A stretch of DNA of 64,000 nucleotides, taken from the NCBI GenBank assembly GCA_041574955.1, contig JBFGNS010000004.1, forward strand, positions 6,707 to 70,706. The letters are read 5' to 3'. The notes beneath the pieces were generated by a model that did no database searches, was not told the DNA's origin, and saw only the letters and a list, made by a program, of their open reading frames with translations. Position 1 is the stretch's first letter. Each line of letters starts with the position of its first letter. The position numbers and the translations under genes are program-made. This stretch comes from Thermoanaerobaculia bacterium (GTDB lineage Bacteria > Acidobacteriota > Thermoanaerobaculia > Multivoradales > JAHEKO01). This document shows, in pieces, positions 21,707-63,869 of this stretch.

Positions 21707-21899
21707 GGCCCGGCCGGCTGGGAGTCGCGGGGGAGGGGGTCCCAGGGTACCGGCTCGCGCCGGTCGGGTTTTCTCGGGGGTGCGCTCGCCCGCACTCGGC
21801 TGGCGCGCGGCATCGGCGTCGGACTCCCGCCGGCGTTGCGCCGCGCTGGCCGAGAGCTACCCTGGAACCCCCTCCCCCGCAACTCCGACGCCGGCCTCC
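21707..21899 (+). repeat. Family-1 structured intergenic repeat, copy A (193 nt)
   Basis: Alignable end to end with 45597-45804, 47361-47553 and 62303-62495. Long self-complementary arms (gcgggggagggggtcccagggta / taccctggaaccccctcccccgc) enclose a conserved core (ccggctcgcgc...gcactcggctggcgcgcgg...ggcgtcggactcc...gcgctggccgagagc). Confidence 0.85.
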
Positions 21900-21938: not shown

Positions 21939-22547
21939 ATGTCTGAGCGAGAGCAGCGGCCCGCGGTGGCCGGGGAGGAACGGTCCGGGCCGGCGGCGCC
22001 GGCGCCGGGGCTGCTGTACAGGGTGGCCTGGGTGTTCTACCTGGTGCTGGCGATCGGCGGGGTGGTGTGGATCGGGGTGCGGCGGGGGACGATCCCGCTG
22101 GAGCTGTTCGTGGATCCGGCGGGCTGGTGGATCGACCTGGGGCTGGGCCTCGGGGCCGGCGGCCTGCTGCTCGGGCTGTGGCAGCTGGGGAGGCGGCTGC
22201 TGCCGTCGGCGAGGGCGCTCGAGGGCAAGCTGGGAGAGCTGCTGGCCGGGGTCGACGGCGCCGAGGTGGTGGCGCTGGCGCTGGTGTCGGGCTTCGCCGA
22301 GGAGCTGTTCTTTCGCGGCGCCATGCAGGCGGCCTGGGGCTGGCCGTTGGCCACCGCCCTGTTCGCCCTGCTGCACGTCGGCCCCGGGCGGGCCTACCGC
22401 TCCTGGACCGTCTTCGCCGCCGCCGCCGGCCTGCTGCTGGCCGGCCTGATGGAGTGGCGCGGCAACCTGCTCGCCCCGGTGGTGGCCCACGCCCTGGTCA
22501 ACGCGGTCAACCTGGGGCGGCTGGCGAGGAGAGGCGTGCGGGCTTGA
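21939..22547 (+). CDS. CPBP-family intramembrane glutamic endopeptidase (CAAX protease-like); start re-set to ATG 21939
   Basis: MSEREQRP... followed by several TM helices. CPBP motifs are present: GFAEELFFRG, FALLHV and APVVAHALVNAVN. The 79 aa upstream in the track ORF lie over the family-1 repeat and are rejected. Confidence 0.75.
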   Translation: MSEREQRPAVAGEERSGPAAPAPGLLYRVAWVFYLVLAIGGVVWIGVRRGTIPLELFVDPAGWWIDLGLGLGAGGLLLGLWQLGRRLLPSARALEGKLGELLAGVDGAEVVALALVSGFAEELFFRGAMQAAWGWPLATALFALLHVGPGRAYRSWTVFAAAAGLLLAGLMEWRGNLLAPVVAHALVNAVNLGRLARRGVRA

Positions 22548-22600
22548 GGGCCCGGGGGTTTGACGCGCGGGGCGAACCTCTCTGCGCATGCCAGGGTTGG

Positions 22601-22625
22601 TTCGCTGCGCTCAGGATGACAGCGA
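22601..22625. repeat. Short REP-like palindromic unit (complement reads GTCATCCTGAGCGCAGCGAA)
   Basis: ttcgctgcgctcaggatgacagcga, with tcgct/agcga able to pair. I recall the GTCATCCTGAGCG-type motif as a dispersed intergenic repeat in several GC-rich phyla. There is only one copy in this window. Confidence 0.4.
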
Positions 22626-22635
22626 GCTTCCGGCC

Positions 22636-22690
22636 GCGGCGTCGGACTCCAACCCCGAGCACTACCGCAGGGACCACCCTTCGAAGTGAC
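22636..22690 (+). repeat. Degenerate 3'-half remnant of the family-1 repeat
   Basis: gcggcgtcggactccaacccc...gagcactaccgcagggaccacccttcgaagtgac aligns with the 3' half of family 1 (ggcgtcggactccaccc...gagagctaccctgggaccctgtccccctcgcctctgac). It has an internal deletion and no 5' arm. Confidence 0.4.
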
Positions 22691-22704
22691 AGCAACGCCC
22701 GGGG

Positions 22705-22858
22705 CCATCGCCGGAGGCTGCGCCCGCCGGTTGGAGCCCGGGGCGGAGCGACATCACCCTCGCCTTTGGAGCGCAGCTCCGGGCTCCGGCCGGCCAGCGC
22801 AGCCGGCCCGAAGCTCCGGAGCCCCCAAGCCCCCAAGCCCCCAAGCCCTCGGGCCCTC
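22705..22858 (+). repeat. Family-2 hairpin repeat, copy a, with three tandem GCCCCCAA octamers
   Basis: Aligns with 62580-62721. The 16-bp stem gccggttggagcccgg (22726-22741) / ccgggctccggccggc (22779-22794) closes a 37-nt loop containing GGAGCGACATCACCCTCG. GCCCCCAA x3 lies at 22821-22844. Confidence 0.8.
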
Positions 22859-22909
22859 TACCCCCTCTGCTACACTCACCCGCCCGACCCAAGGAGGCGA
22901 TCACCCCCA

Positions 22910-24292
22910 ATGAGCGGCGACAGTCAGGCGGTCTTCGACCGCATCGAGCGCGAAAAAGAGCGCTACCTCGAGGAGCTCAAGGAGTACATCCGGATCCCGT
23001 CGGTGTCGACCGATCCCGACCACAAAGCCGACGTCCTGCGCTGCGGCGACTACCTGGCCGAGCGGCTCGGCGAGGCCGGTCTCGAGGTCGAGAAGATCGA
23101 CACCGAAGGCAACCCGCTGGTCTACGCCGAGTGGCTGGGCGCGCCGGGCAAGCCGACGGTGCTGTTCTACGGCCACTACGACGTCCAGCCGCCGGATCCG
23201 CTCGAGGAGTGGCGCAACCCGCCGTTCGAGCCGACCGTCGAGGGCGACGAGCTGGTGGCGCGCGGCGCGACCGACGACAAGGGCCAGTCGTACTGCCACG
23301 TCAAGGCGGTCGAGGCGGTGCTGGCCGAGCGCGGCGAGCTGCCGGTCAACGTCAAGTTCCTGGTCGAGGGCGAGGAGGAGATCGGCGGCGAGTCGATCGA
23401 CAAGTACGTGCGCGCCGACGCCGGCGGCAAGCTGGCGTGCGACGCGGTGGTGGTCTCCGACACCTCGATGTTCGGTCCCGGCCAGCCGTCGATCCTGTAC
23501 GGGCTCAAGGGCCTGAGCTACCAGGAGATCCGGGTCTACGGCCCGAACCGCGACCTGCATTCGGGCACCTTCGGTGGCGGCGTCGCCAACCCGGCCAACG
23601 CGCTGTGCCAGATCATCGCGCGGCTGCGCGACGCGGAGACCGGCAAGGTGATGATCCCGGGCTTCTACGACGCGGTGCGCCCGCTGGAAGAGTGGGAGCG
23701 CAAGGAGTTCGCGGCGCTGCCGTTCGACGACGACGCCTACCGCGCCGAGCTCGGCCTCGAGGCGGTGTTCGGCGAGCAGGGCTACACCACGCTCGAGCGG
23801 GTGTGGGCGCGCCCCACCTGCGACGTCAACGGCCTGTGGAGCGGCTACCAGGGCGCCGGAGCCAAGACCGTGCTGCCGGCCAAGGCCGGCGCCAAGGTCT
23901 CGATGCGTCTGGTACCCGACCAGGACCCCGATGAGATCGCCCGCCTGTTCGCCGACTACGTGCGCTCGATCGCGCCGCCCGGCGTGCGGGTCGAGGCCAC
24001 CAACCTGCACGGCGCCGAGCCGGTGCTGGTCGAGATCCAGGGGCCGCTGGCCGACGCCGGGATGGCGGCGCAGGAAGACGTCTGGGGCAAGCGCCCGGTG
24101 CGGGTGCGGGAGGGTGGCTCGATCCCGATCGTCGCCACCTTCTCGAAGGTGCTCGAGGTGCCGGTGCTGCTGCTCGGCTTCGGCCTGCCCGACGACCGCC
24201 TGCACTCGCCCAACGAGAAGTTCAACATCAGCCACTTCTACAACGGCATCCGCACGACCGTGCGGCTGCTCGACCGGATCGGAGCGGCCTAG
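22910..24292 (+). CDS. M20-family metallopeptidase (dipeptidase, ArgE/DapE/CPG2 family); start re-set to ATG 22910 after AAGGAGG
   Basis: MSGDSQAVFDRIEREKERYLEELKEYIRIPSVSTDP..., metal-binding motifs (FYGHYDVQP, ARGATDDKG, VEGEEEIGG) and HSPNEKF near the C-terminus. 460 aa. Confidence 0.85.
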   Translation: MSGDSQAVFDRIEREKERYLEELKEYIRIPSVSTDPDHKADVLRCGDYLAERLGEAGLEVEKIDTEGNPLVYAEWLGAPGKPTVLFYGHYDVQPPDPLEEWRNPPFEPTVEGDELVARGATDDKGQSYCHVKAVEAVLAERGELPVNVKFLVEGEEEIGGESIDKYVRADAGGKLACDAVVVSDTSMFGPGQPSILYGLKGLSYQEIRVYGPNRDLHSGTFGGGVANPANALCQIIARLRDAETGKVMIPGFYDAVRPLEEWERKEFAALPFDDDAYRAELGLEAVFGEQGYTTLERVWARPTCDVNGLWSGYQGAGAKTVLPAKAGAKVSMRLVPDQDPDEIARLFADYVRSIAPPGVRVEATNLHGAEPVLVEIQGPLADAGMAAQEDVWGKRPVRVREGGSIPIVATFSKVLEVPVLLLGFGLPDDRLHSPNEKFNISHFYNGIRTTVRLLDRIGAA

Positions 24293-45541: not shown

Positions 45542-45596
45542 CGAAAGCGAGCCGGCTGGCTGGTTGCTCGTCGAGCCGGCGTACCGCCCTGGTGCT

Positions 45597-45804
45597 GGCC
45601 CGGCCGGCTTGGAGTCGGGGGGAGAGGGTCGGCCCAATAGGGACTACATCTCCGGCTCGCGCCAGTCGGACTCTGCTTAGGGGGTGCGCTCGCCCGCACT
45701 CGGCTGGCGCGCGGGCGTCGGCGTCTGACTCCCATCGGCGTTGCGTTGCGCTGGCCGAGAGCTACCTGTCGACCCCTCTCCCCTCGACTCTGACGCCGAC
45801 ACCC
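45597..45804 (+). repeat. Family-1 structured intergenic repeat, copy B (208 nt, most diverged)
   Basis: Same core as the other copies (ccggctcgcgcc...gcgctcgcccgcactcggctggcgcgcgg...gcgctggccgagagc). The stem sequence is different but still complementary (gtcggggggagagggtcg / cgacccctctcccctcgac). About 15 extra nt sit at the tip of the 5' arm. Confidence 0.8.
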
Positions 45805-45873
45805 GGTGGATCCGCTCAACAGCTGGCAGCTCTGGCCAAGAGGGCTGTCGGGGCGAGTGGGATCCGGATCGAC

Positions 45874-46128
45874 TCAGGCCTTGCTCTCCGGCGGCGTGAT
45901 GTCCTTGATCGGGGGCTTTTCCGGCGGCGGCTCGCCGCGCTCCTGGAGCGAGCCCAAGAGCAGGGTGAGCAGGCCGAGCAGGATCTCGTCGATGAACGGG
46001 ATCAGGTCGGGGATCAGCAGGTCGACGAAGAACAGCGTCGCGGCCACCGCGAACAGCTGCGGGAAGCGCAGCCGGGCGCCGAAGCGGCCGAGCAGAGAGC
46101 GGATGAGACCCTGGGGCGGCGTCGCCAT
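45874..46128 (-). CDS. Small hypothetical membrane protein
   Basis: 84 aa. Central hydrophobic stretch FPQLFAVAATLFFVDLLIPDLIPFIDEILLGLLTLLLG and a Pro/Glu/Lys tail. This is the only plausible ORF in the interval. Confidence 0.5.
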   Translation of the reverse strand: MATPPQGLIRSLLGRFGARLRFPQLFAVAATLFFVDLLIPDLIPFIDEILLGLLTLLLGSLQERGEPPPEKPPIKDITPPESKA

Positions 46129-46166
46129 GGCGGCCCATCATACGGGACCCGCCGACCGGTGGCCGG

Positions 46167-47078
46167 CTACTCCCGCGGGCCGAGCCCCGGCCGCCCCTCG
46201 AGCTCCTCGAGGGTGCGCGGCCAGTCGTCCTTGAGCAGCCGCGACAGCGCGCGGTCGGCGAGCAGACGACCGCCGGTCTGGCAGCCGGCGCAGTAGTTGG
46301 CCTCGTTCTCGGCGTAGACGATGCGCTGTACCGGCGCGCCGCAGTCGGGGCACGGCTGGCGGTGGCGGCCGTGTACAGCCATGCCGTCGCGGAAGGCGGT
46401 GACCTTGGCCGGGAAGCCTTTGCCGGCGTCGGCGACGAGCCGCTCGGCCCACTCGGCGAGCACCGCCCGCGCGGCGTCGTACAGGCGGTCCACCTCGCCG
46501 TCGTCGAGCCGGCCGGTGAGCTTGAACGGCGACAGCCGGGCGCGGTGGAGGATCTCGTCCGAGTAGGCGTTGCCGACGCCCGAGAAAAGCCGCGGATCGG
46601 TCAGGGCGCGCTTGAGCGTGTGGCTGGCCGAGCGCAGCCGGGCGGCGAACTCGGCGCGGCCGGCGGTGAGGATCTCGAGCCCGCCGGGGTCGTGCGCCGC
46701 CAGGGTCTCGGCGCCGGCGACGACGTAGAGCGACGCCCGCTGCTTCTTGCCGGCCTCGGTCACGACCAGGGTGCCGCGCGGGAAGTCGAGCGCCGCCAGG
46801 CCGATCCGCCCCGGCGGCCTGGCGCCGGGCGGCCGCCAGCGCAGCCGACCGGCGACCATCAGGTGGAGCACCAGGTAGAGCTCGCCGTCGAGCTCGAGGA
46901 CGATGCGCTTGCCGAGCCGCCGTACTCCGCGCACCCGCCGGCCCTCGGCGGCCGTCACCGGCGGCGCCACCGAGCGCAGCAGGAACGGGCTCCGGATCCG
47001 CACCCGCTCGAGCGGCTCGCCCACCACGCGGGGCGCGAGCGCGTGCAGATAGGCCTCGATGTCGGGCAGCTCGGGCAT
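46167..47078 (-). CDS. Fpg/Nei-family DNA glycosylase/AP lyase (start set to the ATG giving N-terminal MPELPD)
   Basis: MPELPDIEAYLHAL (catalytic N-terminal Pro after Met removal), H2TH region and the C-terminal zinc finger CPDCGAPVQRIVYAENEANYCAGCQ. Confidence 0.85.
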   Translation of the reverse strand: MPELPDIEAYLHALAPRVVGEPLERVRIRSPFLLRSVAPPVTAAEGRRVRGVRRLGKRIVLELDGELYLVLHLMVAGRLRWRPPGARPPGRIGLAALDFPRGTLVVTEAGKKQRASLYVVAGAETLAAHDPGGLEILTAGRAEFAARLRSASHTLKRALTDPRLFSGVGNAYSDEILHRARLSPFKLTGRLDDGEVDRLYDAARAVLAEWAERLVADAGKGFPAKVTAFRDGMAVHGRHRQPCPDCGAPVQRIVYAENEANYCAGCQTGGRLLADRALSRLLKDDWPRTLEELEGRPGLGPRE

Positions 47079-47220
47079 GGGAGTGCCGGTCATTCTAGGT
47101 CCGCGGTATCGACGGAGCGAGACAGGGATCCAAGGGGCGCTTCAACACAAAGCGAACGTTCGTTCTTTTGCGTTGATTGTCGGTGCGGTTTCACCCTTCG
47201 GAGGGACACCGGAGCCTGGG

Positions 47221-47286
47221 CCACCCCCGGGAAGGTGCGCCTGCCGGGGGCCCGGGGCGGAGCGACCTCCATCGCCCCTTTTGGAC
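47221..47286 (+). repeat. Family-2 repeat, truncated copy c1 (5' half only)
   Basis: ccacccccgggaaggtgcgcctgccgggggcccggggcggagcgacctccatcgccccttttggac aligns with the first half of 62580-62650. The 3' stem arm is missing and the sequence runs into a family-1 fragment. Confidence 0.6.
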
Positions 47287-47301
47287 ACCGGGATGCGTGC
47301 T

Positions 47302-47343
47302 GGCCCGGCCGGCTCGGAGTCGACGGGGACAAGGTCCCAGGTA
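47302..47343 (+). repeat. Extra, isolated 5' arm of the family-1 repeat
   Basis: ggcccggccggctcggagtcgacggggacaaggtcccaggta duplicates the first ~42 nt of family 1 with 3 substitutions and one missing g, 18 nt upstream of full copy C. Confidence 0.7.
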
Positions 47344-47360
47344 GCGGCGGGTCGGCGGTG

Positions 47361-47553
47361 GGCCCGGCCGGCTCGGAGTCGAGGGGGACAGGGTCCCAGG
47401 GTACCGGCTCGCGCGCAGTCGGACTTTCGAGCGGGGCGCTCGCCTGCACTCGGCTGGCGCGCGGCATCGGCGTCGGACTCCACCCGGCGTTGCGCTGCGC
47501 TGGCCGAGAGCTACCCTGGGACCCTGTCCCCCTCGCCTCTGACGCCGGCCTCC
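47361..47553 (+). repeat. Family-1 structured intergenic repeat, copy C (193 nt)
   Basis: Near-identical to copy D (62303-62495), with a perfect 24-bp stem cgagggggacagggtcccagggta / taccctgggaccctgtccccctcg. Confidence 0.85.
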
Positions 47554-47567
47554 GCGGGGCGAGGGGG

Positions 47568-47607
47568 GCCTCGAGGGCTCGGGGGCTCGAGGGCTCGAGG
47601 CTTGAGG
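47568..47607. repeat. Tandem octamer array (5 units, GGCTCGAG-like)
   Basis: gcctcgag ggctcggg ggctcgag ggctcgag gcttgagg. Its reverse complement resembles the GCCCCCAA / GCCCTTGA units that follow family-2 copies a and d. Confidence 0.7.
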
Positions 47608-47626
47608 CCTGGCGCTGCGTAAGCCG

Positions 47627-47682
47627 GCGGGGGCCCGGTCGGAGCGACATCACCCTCGTGTGGCCAAGCGACCGGGCCCCGC
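47627..47682 (+). repeat. Family-2 hairpin repeat, copy c2
   Basis: Stem gcgggggcccggtc (47627-47640) / gaccgggccccgc (47670-47682) closes a loop containing GGAGCGACATCACCCTCG. Confidence 0.7.
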
Positions 47683-47856
47683 GCCCAACGCGCTGGCCGG
47701 GGGCTCGGGGGGCTGCTGCTCGTCCTCGACGGGAGACAGGGCCGGGTACCGGAGGGTGCAGGGCGGTCGGGGCACTCGCGCCGAAAGCCCTTTGGCTACG
47801 GGGGACTGTGGCGCTGGCACGGATCCTGAAGCCCGGGGCCGGCGAGGAGGCCCGAG

Positions 47857-48570
47857 ATGATGCGACGGAATATGACTTTGGCACTGGCCGGCGGCGCGCT
47901 GGCGCTGGGGCTCATGGTGGCCGCGCCGGCCGAGGCGGGGCACGCCGGCTGGTCGTTCGGCGCCGGCTTCCGGGTCGGCGGCTTTGATTTCCAGATCGGC
48001 TTCCGCGACGGCGGGCGGTACGGTCCGGGCCCCTACTTCCACACCCGCGGCGCCCTGAGCTACCCTGGCCACCGCTGCGGCAGCTACTGCCTGCGCAGCG
48101 GCCGCGACTTCTACCACCACTACACCTGCCCGCTGGTCGGCCTCCACTTCAGCCGCTTCGGATACTCGTCGGGCTACTACCTCGATGCGTACCCGCCGCC
48201 GGGTTTCTTCTTCCGCGGTTACTACGGCGGCTACCACGACCGCCACTACCGGCACCGTGCGCCCAGCCGCCGGCACGGCTACTATCTCCACCGGGACCGC
48301 CACCGCGACCGCTGGTGGGACCACCGCGGCGACCGCTGGGACCGTCGTGACCAGCGGCGCGACCGCCGCCGCGACTGGCGGCGGGACCGGCGGCACGACC
48401 GGCGCGACGAACGGCGTGACTGGCGGCGCGACCGGCGGGATGACCGCCGCGACTGGCGCGAGGACCGGCGTCACGATCGGCGCCGTCACCGCCTGCGCGA
48501 TCGCGACGACCGCCGCCGCGACGACGACCGGCCGCGGGCCCGCCGCCGCGGCCGCCGGGGTCCCGGCTAG
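47857..48570 (+). CDS. Secreted hypothetical protein with Arg/Asp/Trp/His-rich repeat tail
   Basis: 237 aa. GAGGAGG lies 6 nt upstream of the ATG. Clear signal peptide MMRRNMTLALAGGALALGLMVAAPAEA. A Gly/Tyr/Phe-rich middle region with three Cys, then about 90 aa of DRRxDWRRDRR-type repeats. Confidence 0.6.
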   Translation: MMRRNMTLALAGGALALGLMVAAPAEAGHAGWSFGAGFRVGGFDFQIGFRDGGRYGPGPYFHTRGALSYPGHRCGSYCLRSGRDFYHHYTCPLVGLHFSRFGYSSGYYLDAYPPPGFFFRGYYGGYHDRHYRHRAPSRRHGYYLHRDRHRDRWWDHRGDRWDRRDQRRDRRRDWRRDRRHDRRDERRDWRRDRRDDRRDWREDRRHDRRRHRLRDRDDRRRDDDRPRARRRGRRGPG

Positions 48571-62248: not shown

Positions 62249-62291
62249 GTGCCCCGACCTGGGGAAGTGGCGGGAGAGGGTCGTGGGGCAC
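62249..62291 (+). repeat. GC-rich hairpin immediately upstream of family-1 copy D
   Basis: gtgccccgac (62249-62258) pairs with gtcgtggggcac (62280-62291), with a 2-nt bulge. It is followed by caccgggatgc, which also precedes the family-1 fragment at 47288-47298. Confidence 0.4.
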
Positions 62292-62302
62292 CGGGATGCA
62301 TG

Positions 62303-62495
62303 GGCCCGGCCGGCTCGGAGTCGAGGGGGACAGGGTCCCAGGGTACCGGCTCGCGCGCGGTCGGACTTTCGGGCGGGGCGCTCGCCTGCACTCGGCTGGC
62401 GCGCGGCATGGGCGTCGGACTCCACCCGGCGTTGCGCTGCGCTGGCCGAGAGCTACCCTGGGACCCTGTCCCCCTCGCCTCTGACGCCGGCCTCC
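62303..62495 (+). repeat. Family-1 structured intergenic repeat, copy D (193 nt)
   Basis: Perfect 24-bp stem 62322-62345 / 62454-62477, extended with one mismatch and one bulge to ggccggc / gccggcc. 108-nt conserved core. Confidence 0.85.
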
Positions 62496-62579
62496 GGTGA
62501 GAGCAGCGGGAATCGGCCGCCGGCTCCGCGCATCACCGGTCGCCAGTCAGCGCTCCTCGAAGCGAGAACAGCGCGGTAG

Positions 62580-62721
62580 CCATCCCCGGAGGGTGTGCCC
62601 GCCGGCTCGGGGCCCGGGGCGGAGCGACATCACCCTCGCCTTTGGAGCGTAGCGCCGGGCCCCGAGCCGGCCGCGCGCCCGGCCCGAAGCCGCAAACCCA
62701 GCCCCCAAGCCCTTGAGCCCC
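62580..62721 (+). repeat. Family-2 hairpin repeat, copy d
   Basis: Perfect 17-bp stem gccggctcggggcccgg (62601-62617) / ccgggccccgagccggc (62655-62671), with a 37-nt loop containing GGAGCGACATCACCCTCG. Followed by GCCCCCAA/GCCCTTGA units (62701-62721). Confidence 0.8.
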
Positions 62722-62741
62722 GTGAGATATGCTCCCCGCCG

Positions 62742-63869
62742 GTGCTCCCGCTACAGCGGTCGTTGTTGAAGGTGGCAGCCCTCGGGGCCTCGATGCTGGC
62801 GTCCGGCCTGGGAGGGCTGTCCTGGGCTCAGGAAGAAGGTCCGGTGGAGCCGCTCGAGGGGCTCGATCCGGTGCTGCTGGTCGAGGGCCGGGAGGTCCAG
62901 GGCGAGCCCGGGATTACGGTGGCGCGCGGGCGGTTCCGCTACTCGTTTGCCGGTGAGGAGACCCGGCGCCGGTTCGAGGCCGATCCCGAGCGGTACGAGA
63001 TCCGCTACGGCGGCGCCTGCGCGCGCATGCGCTCGGCCGACGGCAACCCCGACCTGTTCGCGGTGCACGACGGCGGGATCTACGTTTTCGGCAGCGCCGA
63101 GTGCTGGCGTGCCTTCCGCGCCGCGCCGACCGACTACCTGGACCGGCCGCCGGCGCCGCTGGGCGACGACCCGGCAGCCTCCGAGCGCGGCCGGCAGCTG
63201 ATCGAGCGGGCGGTCGCCGCGGTCGGCGGCGCGGCGGTGGTGGACGCCGTACGGGTGCTGCTCGAGAGCGGCACGATACCGCCGCCGGGCGGTAGCGAGG
63301 CCGAGCCGATCCCGGTCACCCTGAGCTTCGAGCTCGCCGGTCGGGCGCGTCAGGACGCGGTGCGCTCCTTCGGCCCGCTGTCGATGATCCTGAACGCCGA
63401 CGGTCTGTTCCAGGTGACCCGCTTCGGCGTCGAGCGGCGGCTCGACTACCACCGGCTGTTGTTCGAGCGCGAGCTGGCGCGCCACCCGCTGGCGCTGCTC
63501 GCCGCGCGCACCGGTGCCGGCTTCCGCGCCGTCGCACTGCCGCCGCCCGCCGGCGGGGGAACGGTCGAGCGCGTGGCCGTCGACACCGGCGGCCAGCGGC
63601 TGGTGCTGGCGCTCGACGCCGGCAGCGGTCTGCCGGCCAGCCTGGCGTTCGACGGCCAGGGACCCGACTGGCGGGTGGGCGAGGTGGAGGTCGTCTACTC
63701 GGACTACCGCGCGGTCGACGGCCTGCTGCTGCCGTTCCGCCGCGAGGGAAGGTACGGCGGCGGTCCGTTCCCGGCGCGGAGCTTCGTGGTCGAGTCGGCG
63801 CGGATCGACCCCGAGCTGCCGCCCGACCTGTTCGCACCGCCGCAGCCGGAGACGGGCGACAGCGGGTGA
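62742..63869 (+). CDS. Secreted hypothetical protein with N-terminal YHS-like domain (start uncertain; GTG 62742 chosen)
   Basis: Signal-like LLKVAALGASMLASGLGGLSWA. GLDPVLLVEGREVQGEPGITVARGRFRYSFAGEETRRRFEADPERY resembles YHS/TRASH-type domains. The 49 aa upstream in the track ORF lie over the family-2 repeat and are rejected. Confidence 0.55.
   Translation: MLPLQRSLLKVAALGASMLASGLGGLSWAQEEGPVEPLEGLDPVLLVEGREVQGEPGITVARGRFRYSFAGEETRRRFEADPERYEIRYGGACARMRSADGNPDLFAVHDGGIYVFGSAECWRAFRAAPTDYLDRPPAPLGDDPAASERGRQLIERAVAAVGGAAVVDAVRVLLESGTIPPPGGSEAEPIPVTLSFELAGRARQDAVRSFGPLSMILNADGLFQVTRFGVERRLDYHRLLFERELARHPLALLAARTGAGFRAVALPPPAGGGTVERVAVDTGGQRLVLALDAGSGLPASLAFDGQGPDWRVGEVEVVYSDYRAVDGLLLPFRREGRYGGGPFPARSFVVESARIDPELPPDLFAPPQPETGDSG

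Follow-up and report, generated by a model that had tools for sequence, protein, structure and literature searches.

The intergenic region between an fpg/nei gene and the gene of a secreted RD-repeat protein in the genome of an uncultured acidobacterium is largely occupied by a cluster of non-coding, hairpin-forming interspersed repeats that are probably non-autonomous mobile DNA of the REPIN/MITE/BOX kind (positions 47194–47715 of the window, that is, of the whole 64,000-nucleotide stretch of DNA analyzed here). The repeat modules are dispersed across the genome and cluster according to a fixed grammar, the cluster contains a duplicated block, the modules are absent from orthologous sites in relatives, and their structure is conserved, with compensatory changes. 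The genome is a metagenome-assembled one (MAG; 89% complete, 4.49 Mb in 290 contigs) from a lineage of Thermoanaerobaculia with 72% G+C.

Repeat modules in the fpg–RD-protein gap

Measured from the ORF coordinates, the gap between the two genes spans 763 nt (47094–47856) rather than the 778 bp given in the preliminary description of this region, and about 520 nt of it are repetitive. In the copy-number profile of the 4.49-Mb assembly, the segment 47194–47660 has 3 to 45 other genomic copies (median per 20-nt bin), the copy number drops to 0–1 over 47691–47715, and the per-base profile across the whole assembly shows zero further copies of 47094–47193 and 47714–47856. The gene on the left encodes a protein of the formamidopyrimidine-DNA glycosylase family (PF01149, 1.9e-17; PF06831, 3.6e-13), and its orthologs in relatives, with full-length matches at 62–79% identity, adjoin a radical-SAM gene. 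The RD-repeat protein produced no match in the Pfam search, and no relative of it adjoins fpg in the related loci examined. In a congener, fpg has a different upstream neighbor, so that nothing appears to be conserved on the upstream side of this gene; the junction of fpg and the RD-protein gene, where the cluster is located, is a synteny break specific to the lineage. A scan of the gap for sigma-70-type promoters yielded no consensus match.

Table 1 Repeat modules, flanking genes and spacers in the window
Feature	Coordinates	Strand	Basis or remarks
F1 copy in a tandem-gene spacer	21707..21899	+	Relatives' spacer near zero length
Sister mosaic	22540..22856	+	G-rich octamers, F3 (22601-22646), F2a (22713-22814), C-rich octamers
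Diverged F1 in the convergent radical-SAM/fpg spacer	45597..45804	+	F1 match
fpg/nei (formamidopyrimidine-DNA glycosylase family), left gap border	46167..47093	-	ORF and Pfam
Unique fpg-proximal spacer, ~100 nt	47094..47193	.	Single-copy in the genome
F2a unit, decayed, 3'-truncated	47194..47285	+	Leader CCCTTCGGAGGGAC..., 5' stem, loop to ..CCTTTTGGA
F1 5' leader (CACCGGGATGCGTGCT)	47286..47301	+	Common to some other F1 copies
Extra F1 5'-arm unit, 59 nt	47302..47360	+	F1 positions 1 to ~45 plus a 14-nt junction
Full F1	47361..47553	+	Covariance model R1, 205.8 bits, model positions 1-193
G-rich octamer array (GGGCTCGR-like)	47554..47610	+	Sequence; same array type in sister blocks
F2b unit lacking 28 internal nt	47611..47690	+	nhmmer F2 match 47616-47659
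G-rich tail of the composite block (GGGGGCTCGGGGGGCTG)	47691..47715	+	Homologous to the C29 block tail
Unique spacer 5' of the RD-protein gene, ~140 nt	47716..47856	.	Single-copy in the genome
RD-repeat secreted-protein gene, right gap border	47857..48570	+	ORF, GC3 0.90
Sister mosaic	62303..62722	+	F1 (62303-62495), 92-nt spacer, F2a (62588-62690), C-rich octamers

All five modules listed in the preliminary description were found at or close to the positions given there. The covariance model matched the full family-1 copy at exactly the same coordinates, the isolated family-1 5' arm (47302–47343) turned out to be part of a 59-nt unit, the octamer run at 47568–47607 lies within a longer G-rich array, and the family-2 hairpin at 47627–47682 belongs to a subtype b unit (F2b) with an internal deletion. 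The truncated family-2 unit placed at 47221–47286 is present as well but begins further upstream and ends at 47285 (Table 1).

The truncated F2a unit is 77–83% identical to many F2a copies in BLAST comparisons, has a copy number of 7–28 and, folded alone, shows insignificant stability (z −0.9). It is followed by a leader, CACCGGGATGCGTGCT, that also lies 5' of the F1 copy at 62303 and of an F1 on C7. The extra arm unit, a member of repeat family D3 with a 59-nt period relative to the full F1 copy, does not fold on its own (z +0.3). The full F1 copy combines an outer stem of ~34–45 bp with a branched inner domain that contains a conserved core, and has a minimum free energy of −150 kcal/mol (z −7.7). 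With at least five G3+ tracts separated by 3–6-nt loops, the octamer array has the potential, judged from its sequence, to form a G-quadruplex. The F2b unit still has a 12–16-bp hairpin and the greater part of its conserved loop (z −1.9).

A composite block copied within the genome

Most of the cluster recurs elsewhere in the same genome. The composite block, from 47297 to about 47715, consists of one or more F1 5'-arm units, F1, octamers and F2b and matches contigs C29, C148 and C282 with 87–90% identity over 277–364 nt (gap positions 203–565). The homology starts exactly at the 5' end of F1; in the sister blocks, too, the octamer array lies 3' of F1 and 5' of F2b, and the 28-nt deletion in F2b is seen in the alignment with these copies. 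Blocks with one, two or more arm units occupy about four or five loci including the present one: elsewhere, the 59-nt arm-plus-junction unit was found 5' of F1 once on C29, twice on C148 (period 59 × 2.8 according to TRF) and at least twice on C48. Because the block is repeated at C29, C148 and C282, most of the mosaic was copied as a unit rather than assembled in place. The composite is thus propagated as a block in its own genome and adjoins an older F2a that lacks its 3' half. Recombination or replication slippage between modules, proposed earlier as the origin of the fragmentation and arm duplication, remains a suitable account of the tandem copy-number variation (the 59-nt arm, the octamers and the F2 arrays), which fits slippage or unequal recombination, but not of the greater part of the mosaic, which was block-copied.

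The modules also occur on dozens of contigs outside the window, and their recurrence within it, previously noted at 22596–22858 and 62249–62721, was confirmed; their order, described as different at these sites, is not free: adjacent modules are co-oriented and nearly constantly spaced.

Genome-wide distribution and grammar of the modules

A search of the 4.49-Mb assembly with the covariance model detected ~33 copies of F1 (~193 nt). F2 (~100 nt, subtypes a and b) produced 85 nhmmer matches, and a third abundant module that had escaped the preliminary inventory of two families and octamers, F3 (~30–55 nt), is present in ~97 copies. The modules have 72–76% G+C, and copies at unrelated loci are 96–99% identical. 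Octamer arrays, about 25 genome-wide with the consensus GGGGGCTT or CGAGGGCT, accompany F1, F2 and F3 alike. This whole-genome comparison shows modules that are dispersed yet strongly clustered, not a locus-specific conserved block: 159 of the 218 modules have a neighbor within 350 nt (26 ± 6.6 expected), and a module is present no more than 300 nt from 56 of the 580 contig ends (8.4 expected).

The spacing between co-oriented neighbors is characteristic of each pair, namely, 35–41 nt for F2b>F3, 64–74 nt for F3>F2a, 44 nt for F2a>F3, and 45–50 nt in four of the six F1>F2 cases. Since these spacings are fixed, the order of the modules is constrained. Tandem F2 or (F3-F2)n arrays have periods of 151–159 nt (~155) and 213 nt. 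Adjacent F1>F2, F3>F2 and F2>F3 modules are co-oriented; the only inverted adjacencies are F3-F3 pairs, with the two units 25–140 nt apart and 16 convergent pairs. The stem of F3 (CYGAG/CTCRG, core GGTCCTTCGCTGCGCTCAGGATGAC) covaries; an F3 doublet produced no relevant match in the Rfam search, and a literature search with the F3 sequence string returned unrelated primer matches only.

For F2, which is confined to the present species, RNAalifold detected covariation in only 3 of the 21 pairs, because the family is young and subtypes a and b are offset by one column. A 20-mer from the F2 loop has single-site matches in nine unrelated MAGs or genomes; the one inspected (L230) falls in an nrdJ-like coding stretch. 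An origin of the loop from nrdJ was considered and rejected: the nrdJ gene of the present genome lacks the 20-mer, so that the match is best attributed to chance.

Structure and spread of F1

F1 bears signs of selection on its structure. Arm complementarity is 0.87 within copies compared with 0.71 between copies, a value not reached in any of 2000 permutations. In an alignment of 37 copies from at least nine genera, 87.7% of the cells are paired, against 65.6% after shuffling and 39–46% after sliding, and double changes occur in 57 of the 64 pairs, including all 20 pairs of helix 2. The inner core, in which the unpaired motifs ACGGCnCG, CGCCTGCGCTC (CGCCUGCGCUC) and GAGAGC are conserved, is better conserved across genera than the termini; this is the opposite of what a classic MITE shows and would allow for a function at the RNA level.

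F1 is an old element, detected in 20 of the 45 genomes of the family, at 1–33 copies per genome, including a long-read assembly of a congener. Its arm sequences turn over while the element itself persists across at least nine genera, and the interior is subject to change as well: it is swapped or deleted in some copies, three or four copies carry F3 at an identical inner position, and an arms-only F1 of 61 nt exists. In congeners, there is a ~120-nt "mini" family (~15–19 copies) with F1 termini, which in F1 and the "mini" elements are inverted repeats common within the genus.

Nine of 20 F1 copies reside in convergent spacers, compared with a background of 17.5%; in tandem spacers, the orientation is unbiased (four in the same and six in the opposite direction). 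This location, together with the unbiased orientation, is what one would expect of selfish DNA that the host tolerates, not of a cis-regulator.

Absence of the modules from orthologous sites

Three module-bearing spacers of the window correspond to spacers of ~0–80 nt without modules in relatives. The orthologous spacer of 45597–45804 is ~80 nt long and free of F1 in L023 and L027, whereas in L024 and L026 it contains pairs of genes that resemble toxin-antitoxin systems; that of 22540–22856 is ~45–55 nt long in L115, L116 and L118. Sequence divergence prevents an alignment of the empty sites. Because the orthologous spacers carry no repeats, the modules evidently arrived by insertion. Both hallmarks of mobile repeats were observed: orthologous sites differ in whether they carry a module, and unrelated loci contain nearly identical copies.

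Selfish elements or functional RNA

Under the mobile-DNA explanation, each module would be a selfish element that, like REPINs, MITEs or BOX elements, is copied into new intergenic positions by an enzyme acting in trans, with a single-stranded hairpin as the intermediate. New copies would land, or survive, chiefly 3' of genes and beside earlier copies, and duplication of blocks, nesting and slippage might then enlarge the clusters, which would also change by nested insertion (such as F3 in F1), by deletion, and where tandem units recombine unequally or slip. The single-stranded intermediate, the trans-acting enzyme and any effect of the cluster on the expression of fpg or the RD-protein gene are inferred. 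A bolder version, unlikely in our estimate, is that F1 is more than a decaying MITE and belongs to an undescribed class of structured mobile elements spanning a bacterial family, with the branched, strand-specific inner domain as its functional heart. That domain might, as RNA or single-stranded DNA, recruit or guide an enzyme outside PF01797 or itself be catalytic; the interchangeable outer arms, F2 and the pan-phylum F3 would be accessory modules on the same machinery, and the GC-skew bias of F2 (see below) would reflect insertion at the replication fork.

The structural conservation of F1 also raises the possibility, an unlikely one on balance, that F1, and perhaps F2, is primarily a functional structured RNA, either a multi-copy small RNA or an element that acts in cis in a 3' or 5' UTR, for instance by attenuating transcription or stabilizing the mRNA; the mosaic would then be a series of RNA modules on the transcript of fpg or of the RD-protein gene. 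The branched fold, the strong covariation across genera and the conserved unpaired motifs are compatible with this possibility, and BOX and REP elements are indeed known to act on co-transcribed genes (PMC3049150). In the inner helices of F1, G.U pairs outnumber A.C pairs by 92 to 29 on the aligned strand, an excess that points to one specific strand, although these counts come from an alignment fitted to the model; over all helices, G.U exceeds A.C in 24 of the 37 sequences and falls below it in 5. A search of the gap against Rfam 15 yielded nothing at the gathering thresholds and only chance-level snoRNA and lncRNA matches at E ≤10, so F1 would be a new RNA family. However, F1 is oriented randomly with respect to neighboring genes, no promoter-like sequence was found as part of the F1 unit, 25 of the 45 genomes of the family lack F1 and the others vary widely in copy number, it is missing from orthologous sites, and elements with swapped, deleted or F3-interrupted interiors nevertheless multiply. 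Strand asymmetry of the folding energy was discarded as evidence for RNA: the sense strand is the more stable one in all 23 copies of G000, whereas in G001 this holds for just 5 of 16 copies, so that the asymmetry in G000 is inherited, not selected.

The search for a mobilizing enzyme

That the modules are true REP/BIME or REPIN elements, mobilized like those of E. coli and Pseudomonas by a RAYT (a Y1 HUH transposase), is improbable. Several features do recall such elements: F3 frequently forms inverted doublets and has a covarying stem, and the modules are extragenic, with compensated changes in the hairpin, as reported for REPINs (PMC3116915). In a search for PF01797 (Y1_Tnp) in the present genome and 40 relatives, the present genome yielded one match, a partial gene with an HxH motif at a contig edge; there is no F1, F2 or F3 on its 3' side, and its 5' side lies beyond the contig end. 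Across these draft genomes, the repeats and PF01797 show no association: G013 (99% complete) has 59 F3 and 8 F1 and G038 (96% complete, 6 contigs) has 82 F3, both with zero PF01797 matches, whereas G011 shows the reverse, with 17 PF01797 matches and neither F1 nor F3. Furthermore, F1 and F2 are 100–190 nt long and co-oriented in clusters instead of alternating, and the terminal GTAG or CGTC tag (cf. PMC3733652) is absent: F1 begins with GGCCCGGCCGGC... and ends with ...GCCGGCCTCC, and the tag is likewise absent from F3. The orientation of F2 follows the local GC skew (45 of 64 copies, Fisher p = 0.002), as would be expected of single-strand transposition at the replication fork, but this is one of eight orientation-association tests (twelve statistical tests with the same-contig concordance checks), and the association is absent for F1 and F3.

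Among G000, G001 and G002, including the long contigs of the congener, no pair of F1 termini was found to enclose a gene or transposase. The terminus search yielded only the "mini" elements, with 97–101 nt between the termini, and one copy with a 215-nt loop insert; with a permissive regular expression for the termini, GC-rich chance matches dominated. Given that the MAG is 89% complete and divided into 290 contigs, unassembled repeats could harbor an autonomous partner. Visual inspection of 21 pairs of flanks revealed no evident target-site duplication, the ends of the elements being fuzzy. A 197-aa ORF is located between G001 copies and shows no evident link to transposition.

The alternatives that the segment merely holds conserved regulatory sequence for divergent promoters of fpg and the RD-protein gene, or that it is an artifact of assembly or binning, can practically be dismissed: the intergenic region is indeed divergent and the assembly is fragmented, with repeats at contig ends, but the sequence is multicopy throughout 47194–47660, the upstream neighbor of fpg differs in the congener, F1 also occurs in the long-read assembly of the congener and in 19 further genomes from the family, and the copies of the block lie inside contigs, each with different unique flanks.

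Relationship to known mosaic repeats

The preliminary description likened the region to REP/BIME mosaics. The likeness holds for the kind of arrangement, that is, for how the cluster works, but not for membership, and BOX-type elements and the NIMEs of Neisseria are at least as close. In Streptococcus pneumoniae and S. suis, BOX elements have the structure boxA-boxB(n)-boxC, with S. suis modules of 115–133 nt (Croucher et al. 2011, PMC3049150). Like BOX, the present clusters are composite repeats of up to several hundred bp in which distinct modules occur in particular permutations, with one tandem module variable in number; they have strong predicted folds, are intergenic and have an uncertain mobilizer. 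The properties that define a BOX-type composite, namely, a constrained order, a variable tandem module and dispersal of the composites, are all observed here. Unlike BOX, which is not GC-rich (AT-rich or neutral), the present modules are strongly GC-rich, F1 and F2 each form a long hairpin whereas in BOX boxA pairs with boxC, and there is no sequence similarity between the two; the target-site duplications and terminal inverted repeats reported for BOX (PMC3049150) could not be demonstrated for the present modules.

BIMEs of E. coli and other enterobacteria are mosaics of REPs and linker motifs (Nunvar et al. 2010, PMC2817692), and the similarity extends to extragenic clusters of palindromic units with stereotyped linkers, in many copies and enriched at the 3' ends of genes. 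REPs are, however, palindromes of 20–40 nt in more than 100 copies, to which only F3 comes close, and they alternate in orientation; the present units are 55–193 nt long and co-oriented, and although the linkers are fixed, only F3-F3 pairs are inverted. REPs carry a conserved GTAG or CGTC tetranucleotide at one end (PMC3733652) and are tied to a REP-flanked RAYT gene, of which we found no counterpart for the present modules, with respect to either flanking repeats or co-occurrence in the draft genomes. REPINs are REP doublets that form hairpins (Bertels and Rainey 2011, PMC3116915): as in REPINs, the replicative unit is a long hairpin the arms of which are kept complementary by compensatory changes (demonstrated here for F1), the clusters are distinctively ordered, there are lineage-specific bursts, and the F3 doublets are REPIN-like. 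Unlike the unconstrained spacer of REPINs, the ~100-nt inner domain of F1 is conserved and branched; moreover, no associated RAYT was found, and F1 spans at least nine genera.

NIMEs consist of RS units with dRS3 repeats on either side (Bentley et al. 2007, PMC1797815). NIMEs and Correia elements resemble the present clusters in being intergenic mosaics of 50–150-bp units with short bounding repeats and in their association with rearrangement points. The dRS3 repeats are 20 bp long and are targets of recombinases or of phage integration. Apart from the octamer arrays, no short bounding repeats of this type were found here, and the phylum and base composition differ.

Most records of mosaic repeat clusters such as BIMEs, NIMEs and BOX come from a few cultured Proteobacteria and Firmicutes. 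The cluster described here is a GC-rich, long-unit counterpart of the mosaics of E. coli, Neisseria and pneumococcus, and the same architecture is now apparent in uncultured Acidobacteriota with 72% G+C, with longer structured units and a readable grammar. F1 provides researchers of mobile DNA and RNA with a well-supported new covariance model. The F3 hairpin is pan-phylum, its exact 25-mer arm being common to many phyla, and this conservation raises the question of which conserved machinery recognizes it. In practical terms, such repeats break short-read MAG assemblies and indicate where synteny is lost and where insertions concentrate. Gene prediction suffers as well, since the repeats give rise to spurious ORFs and misplaced gene starts; two crude gene calls spanned repeats in the present sequence.

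Composition of the fpg-RD intergenic region

Most of the region between the fpg/nei-type gene and the RD gene consists of a single copy of a composite block (F1, octamer array, F2b) lying beside a decayed F2a unit. Clusters of this sort, in which several modules of non-autonomous hairpin repeats lie together, number about 70 in this genome (assembly of 4.49 Mb in 290 contigs, 72.5% G+C; the window is C4:6707-70706). All five modules listed in the preliminary description (a truncated F2 unit, an extra F1 5' arm, a full F1 copy, octamers and an F2 hairpin) were recovered, although the gap, given there as 778 bp, spans 763 nt by the coordinates of the two flanking genes, and the F2 unit, which is indeed present, decayed and truncated at its 3' end, starts earlier than described. 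The BLAST copy-number profile over the whole assembly agrees with a gap built of repeat modules: each position from 47194 to about 47660 has 12–45 further copies in the genome, and positions 47094–47193 and 47714–47856 have zero other copies in the assembly.

Coordinates of the features (positions of the window unless a locus is named)
Feature	Position	Strand	Remarks
F1 in the radical-SAM/fpg spacer	45597-45804		convergent spacer 45542-46166
fpg/nei-type gene	46167-47093	-	PF01149 and PF06831
F2 unit (F2a)	47194-47285		decayed, 3'-truncated
Extra F1 5'-arm unit	47302-47360		59 nt
Full F1	47361-47553		span exactly that of the covariance-model match
G-rich octamer array	47554-47610
F2 hairpin (F2b)	47611-47690		28-nt internal deletion
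RD gene	47857-48570	+	signal-peptide protein with R/D-rich tail; no Pfam match
Mini elements, congener G001	L105:4774-4899; L106; L194
Mini element, congener G002	L007:1400-1526

The full F1 copy has a folding energy of -150 kcal/mol (z -7.7). Where F2a is intact, it folds into a hairpin with about 27 bp and a loop of 31 nt (z about -3); no significant fold was obtained for the truncated F2a or for the arm unit taken alone. The octamer array contains at least five runs of at least three G, 3–6 nt apart, and its plus strand, judged by sequence, fits the usual G-quadruplex motif. C-rich versions of the octamer adjoin F2a on its 3' side, so that F2 units often stand between octamer arrays in inverted orientation (for example, 22540–22558 and 22815–22856).

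Inventory and arrangement of the modules

Iterated nhmmer and covariance-model searches of the assembly yielded about 33 copies of F1; F2 has 85 matches in two subtypes, and F3, a family absent from the preliminary description, has 97, with the core CTGAGGTCCYTCGCTGCGCTCRGGATGAC...GTCGGA and a short covarying stem, CYGAG/CTCRG. About 25 octamer arrays (consensus GGGGGCTT or CGAGGGCT) accompany them. Modules lie within 300 nt of 56 of the 580 contig ends (8.4 expected), indicating that the repeats break the assembly and that the real copy numbers are higher. The window holds nine modules (21707–62722; four F1, one F3 and four F2, counting the truncated one), all of them on the plus strand.

Together, the 218 modules make up 129 clusters, of which 69 contain more than one module. 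Another module lies within 350 nt of 159 of them, compared with 26 ± 6.6 expected for random placement in non-coding space. Neighbouring modules keep stereotyped spacings and, mostly, the same orientation: F2b is followed by F3 at 35–41 nt (10 cases), F3 by F2a at 64–74 nt (8 cases), F2a by F3 at 44 nt (5 of 8), F3 by F2b at 27–30 nt (4 of 7), and F1 by F2 at 45–50 nt (4 of 6). There are, in addition, 16 inverted F3 doublets and tandem arrays of the arm unit (59-nt period), F2a (151–159 nt) and F2b-F3 (213 nt).

Recombination or replication slippage between modules had been proposed from their fragmentation and the arm duplication. Positions 203–565 of the gap align with contigs C29, C148 and C282 at 87–90% identity, with the homology beginning exactly at the F1 5' end, so the mosaic was mostly copied as a unit. 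The numbers of arms and octamers then changed locally; there is one extra arm unit here, one on C29, two on C148 and at least two on contig C48.

Insertion into spacers

Comparison of orthologous spacers, which had been suggested as a check, was performed, and three spacers in the window carry modules where the short spacers of relatives have none. The convergent radical-SAM/fpg spacer, which holds an F1 copy, is about 80 nt long and lacks F1 in two relatives (L023, L027), and in two others (L024, L026) contains differing two-gene insertions that resemble toxin-antitoxin pairs, judged by reading frames alone; this varied content marks an insertion hot spot. Within the conserved array g19129-g21939-g22910-g24338, two spacers of about 0 and 50 nt in relatives measure 290 nt, including F1, and 369 nt, including octamers, F3, F2a and octamers, in the window. 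By these comparisons, the modules arrived by insertion. The studied gap itself is a synteny break, because congener G001 has a different gene upstream of fpg. Among the 20 F1 placements examined, 9 are in convergent spacers (background 17.5%), and no copy other than the studied one lies in a divergent spacer; no orientation preference was found for F1 in tandem spacers.

Long open frames cross the repeat clusters (ORF calls at 22067–24292 and 62595–63869), so that naive ORF calling yields false N-terminal extensions; the true start of the gene downstream of the mosaic is likely to be 22910, after a GGAGG motif.

Structure and modularity of F1

In every F1 copy, the arms are near-perfect complements, and the arm sequences vary among copies: complementarity is 0.87 within a copy versus 0.71 between copies, a difference reached in 0 of 2000 permutations. 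RNAalifold predicted the same architecture separately for this genome and for G001. When 37 copies from at least nine genera were aligned to the F1 covariance model, 87.7% of the cells were paired, compared with 65.6% after shuffling (reached in 0 of 500) and 39–46% with partners slid by 1–3 columns; fitting the alignment to the model favours structure, but the margin is large. Two-sided changes occur in 57 of the 64 pairs, including the inner helices. The unpaired core motifs are kept across genera, unlike the arms and termini, which turn over. G.U is more frequent than A.C in the inner helices (92 vs 29; outer stem, 27 vs 40), which suggests strand-specific folding of the inner domain. A folding-energy strand asymmetry is seen in 23 of 23 copies from this genome and in 5 of 16 from G001, and the former result is therefore not independent evidence. 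The F1 core may have a functional RNA role.

F3 replaces the apical inner hairpin in three or four F1 copies, and one copy consists of arms only (61 nt). The congeners G001 and G002 contain a "mini" family of about 120 nt (approximately 15–19 and at least 8 copies, respectively) whose termini (GGCCCGGCCGGCTYGGAG ... CTCCCGGCCGGCCTCC) are those of F1 but whose interior is unrelated. These termini share 26 identical nucleotides with the F1 arm of this genome, and one such G001 copy carries a 215-nt insert in the loop.

Search for a mobilizing enzyme

The only match to PF01797 (Y1_Tnp) in the assembly is an incomplete gene cut off by a contig edge (C55:1-1300); it is of Y1_Tnp-like (HUH) type with the HxH motif NHAHLL. 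Downstream of it, an unrelated 34-nt unit (GCTCCCTCCGAGTTCGGTGGCACCTCTAGAGCGG), which does not occur dispersed through the genome, is repeated 4–5 times in tandem; no F1, F2 or F3 was found on that side. Genes of this type are multi-copy in relatives. In a profile search of the relatives, Y1 matches do not follow the repeats: G013 and G038, rich in repeats (59 and 82 copies of F3), have none, and G011 has 17 with zero F1 or F3. No pairs of F1 termini surround a transposase-like gene in G001. Visual inspection of 21 pairs of flanks revealed no evident target-site duplication, the element ends being uncertain.

F2 orientation correlates with the sign of the local GC skew in 45 of 64 clusters (Fisher p = 0.002). 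This was one among several tests, and neither F1 nor F3 showed such an association. F1 and F2 clusters on the same contig share orientation in 20 of 27 pairs (13.6 expected, p about 0.02). These suggestive orientation results, together with the plus-strand position of all nine modules of the window, are compatible with single-strand insertion at the replication fork.

Comparison with known repeat systems

The likeness to BIME/REP mosaics noted in the preliminary description does not amount to membership: the modules depart from REP/BIME elements (PMC2817692, PMC3733652) in the length of the units, which are mostly co-oriented instead of alternating, carry no GTAG/CGTC tag and showed no association with a RAYT. 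In REPINs, the arms stay complementary through compensatory change (PMC3116915), as they do in F1. The nearest analogy for the module grammar is the modular BOX family, comprising boxA, boxB in variable number and boxC (67–637 bp), with seven sub-sequences in particular permutations and modules of 115–133 nt in S. suis (PMC3049150); Neisseria NIMEs are a second analogy. The modules have no match in Rfam. The first reading of the locus is supported in part, its repeat observation being confirmed, and the locus newly adds a variant to an already described kind of genome feature, modular repeat clusters.

Age and spread of the families

Full-length F1 copies are found in 20 of the 45 genomes of the family and in 9 of 20 genera (1–33 copies each), and F1 is old. 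F2 is a species-specific burst (mean pairwise identity 0.87): its exact loop 20-mer is present at 63 sites in this genome (76 with at most two mismatches) and in 0 of 40 relatives. Its only other occurrences among 185,579 species representatives are nine single matches, none of which is otherwise similar to F2. These sites, identical to the 20-mer (GGAGCGACATCACCCTCGCC), are in nine unrelated MAGs or genomes (L227–L235). One of them (L230) falls within a reading frame that we take to resemble a class II ribonucleotide reductase (nrdJ-like); origin of the F2 loop from nrdJ was rejected and the match considered a coincidence, because nrdJ of this genome lacks the 20-mer.

F3 is patchy among relatives (49 copies in this genome, 59 in G013, 82 in G038, 30 in G040 and 0 in the two congeners), has no Rfam match, and no paper on it was found by a sequence-string search. 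That many phyla share one identical F3 hairpin arm implies that its recogniser is conserved or that transfer is frequent; this cross-phylum hairpin merits study of its own. The exact 25-mer of the core (GGTCCTTCGCTGCGCTCAGGATGAC; window copy, 22601–22646) is present in at least 120 stretches from many phyla (L236–L315, e.g., L242:6720-6819), the hosts among the matches listed including many Hymenobacter species, Acidobacteriaceae/Terriglobia, Gemmatimonadaceae, Chloroflexota, Planctomycetota, Verrucomicrobiota, Bdellovibrionales, Reyranella and Eubacteriales. It often occurs in inverted pairs 55–75 nt apart, forming perfect hairpins of about 100 nt.
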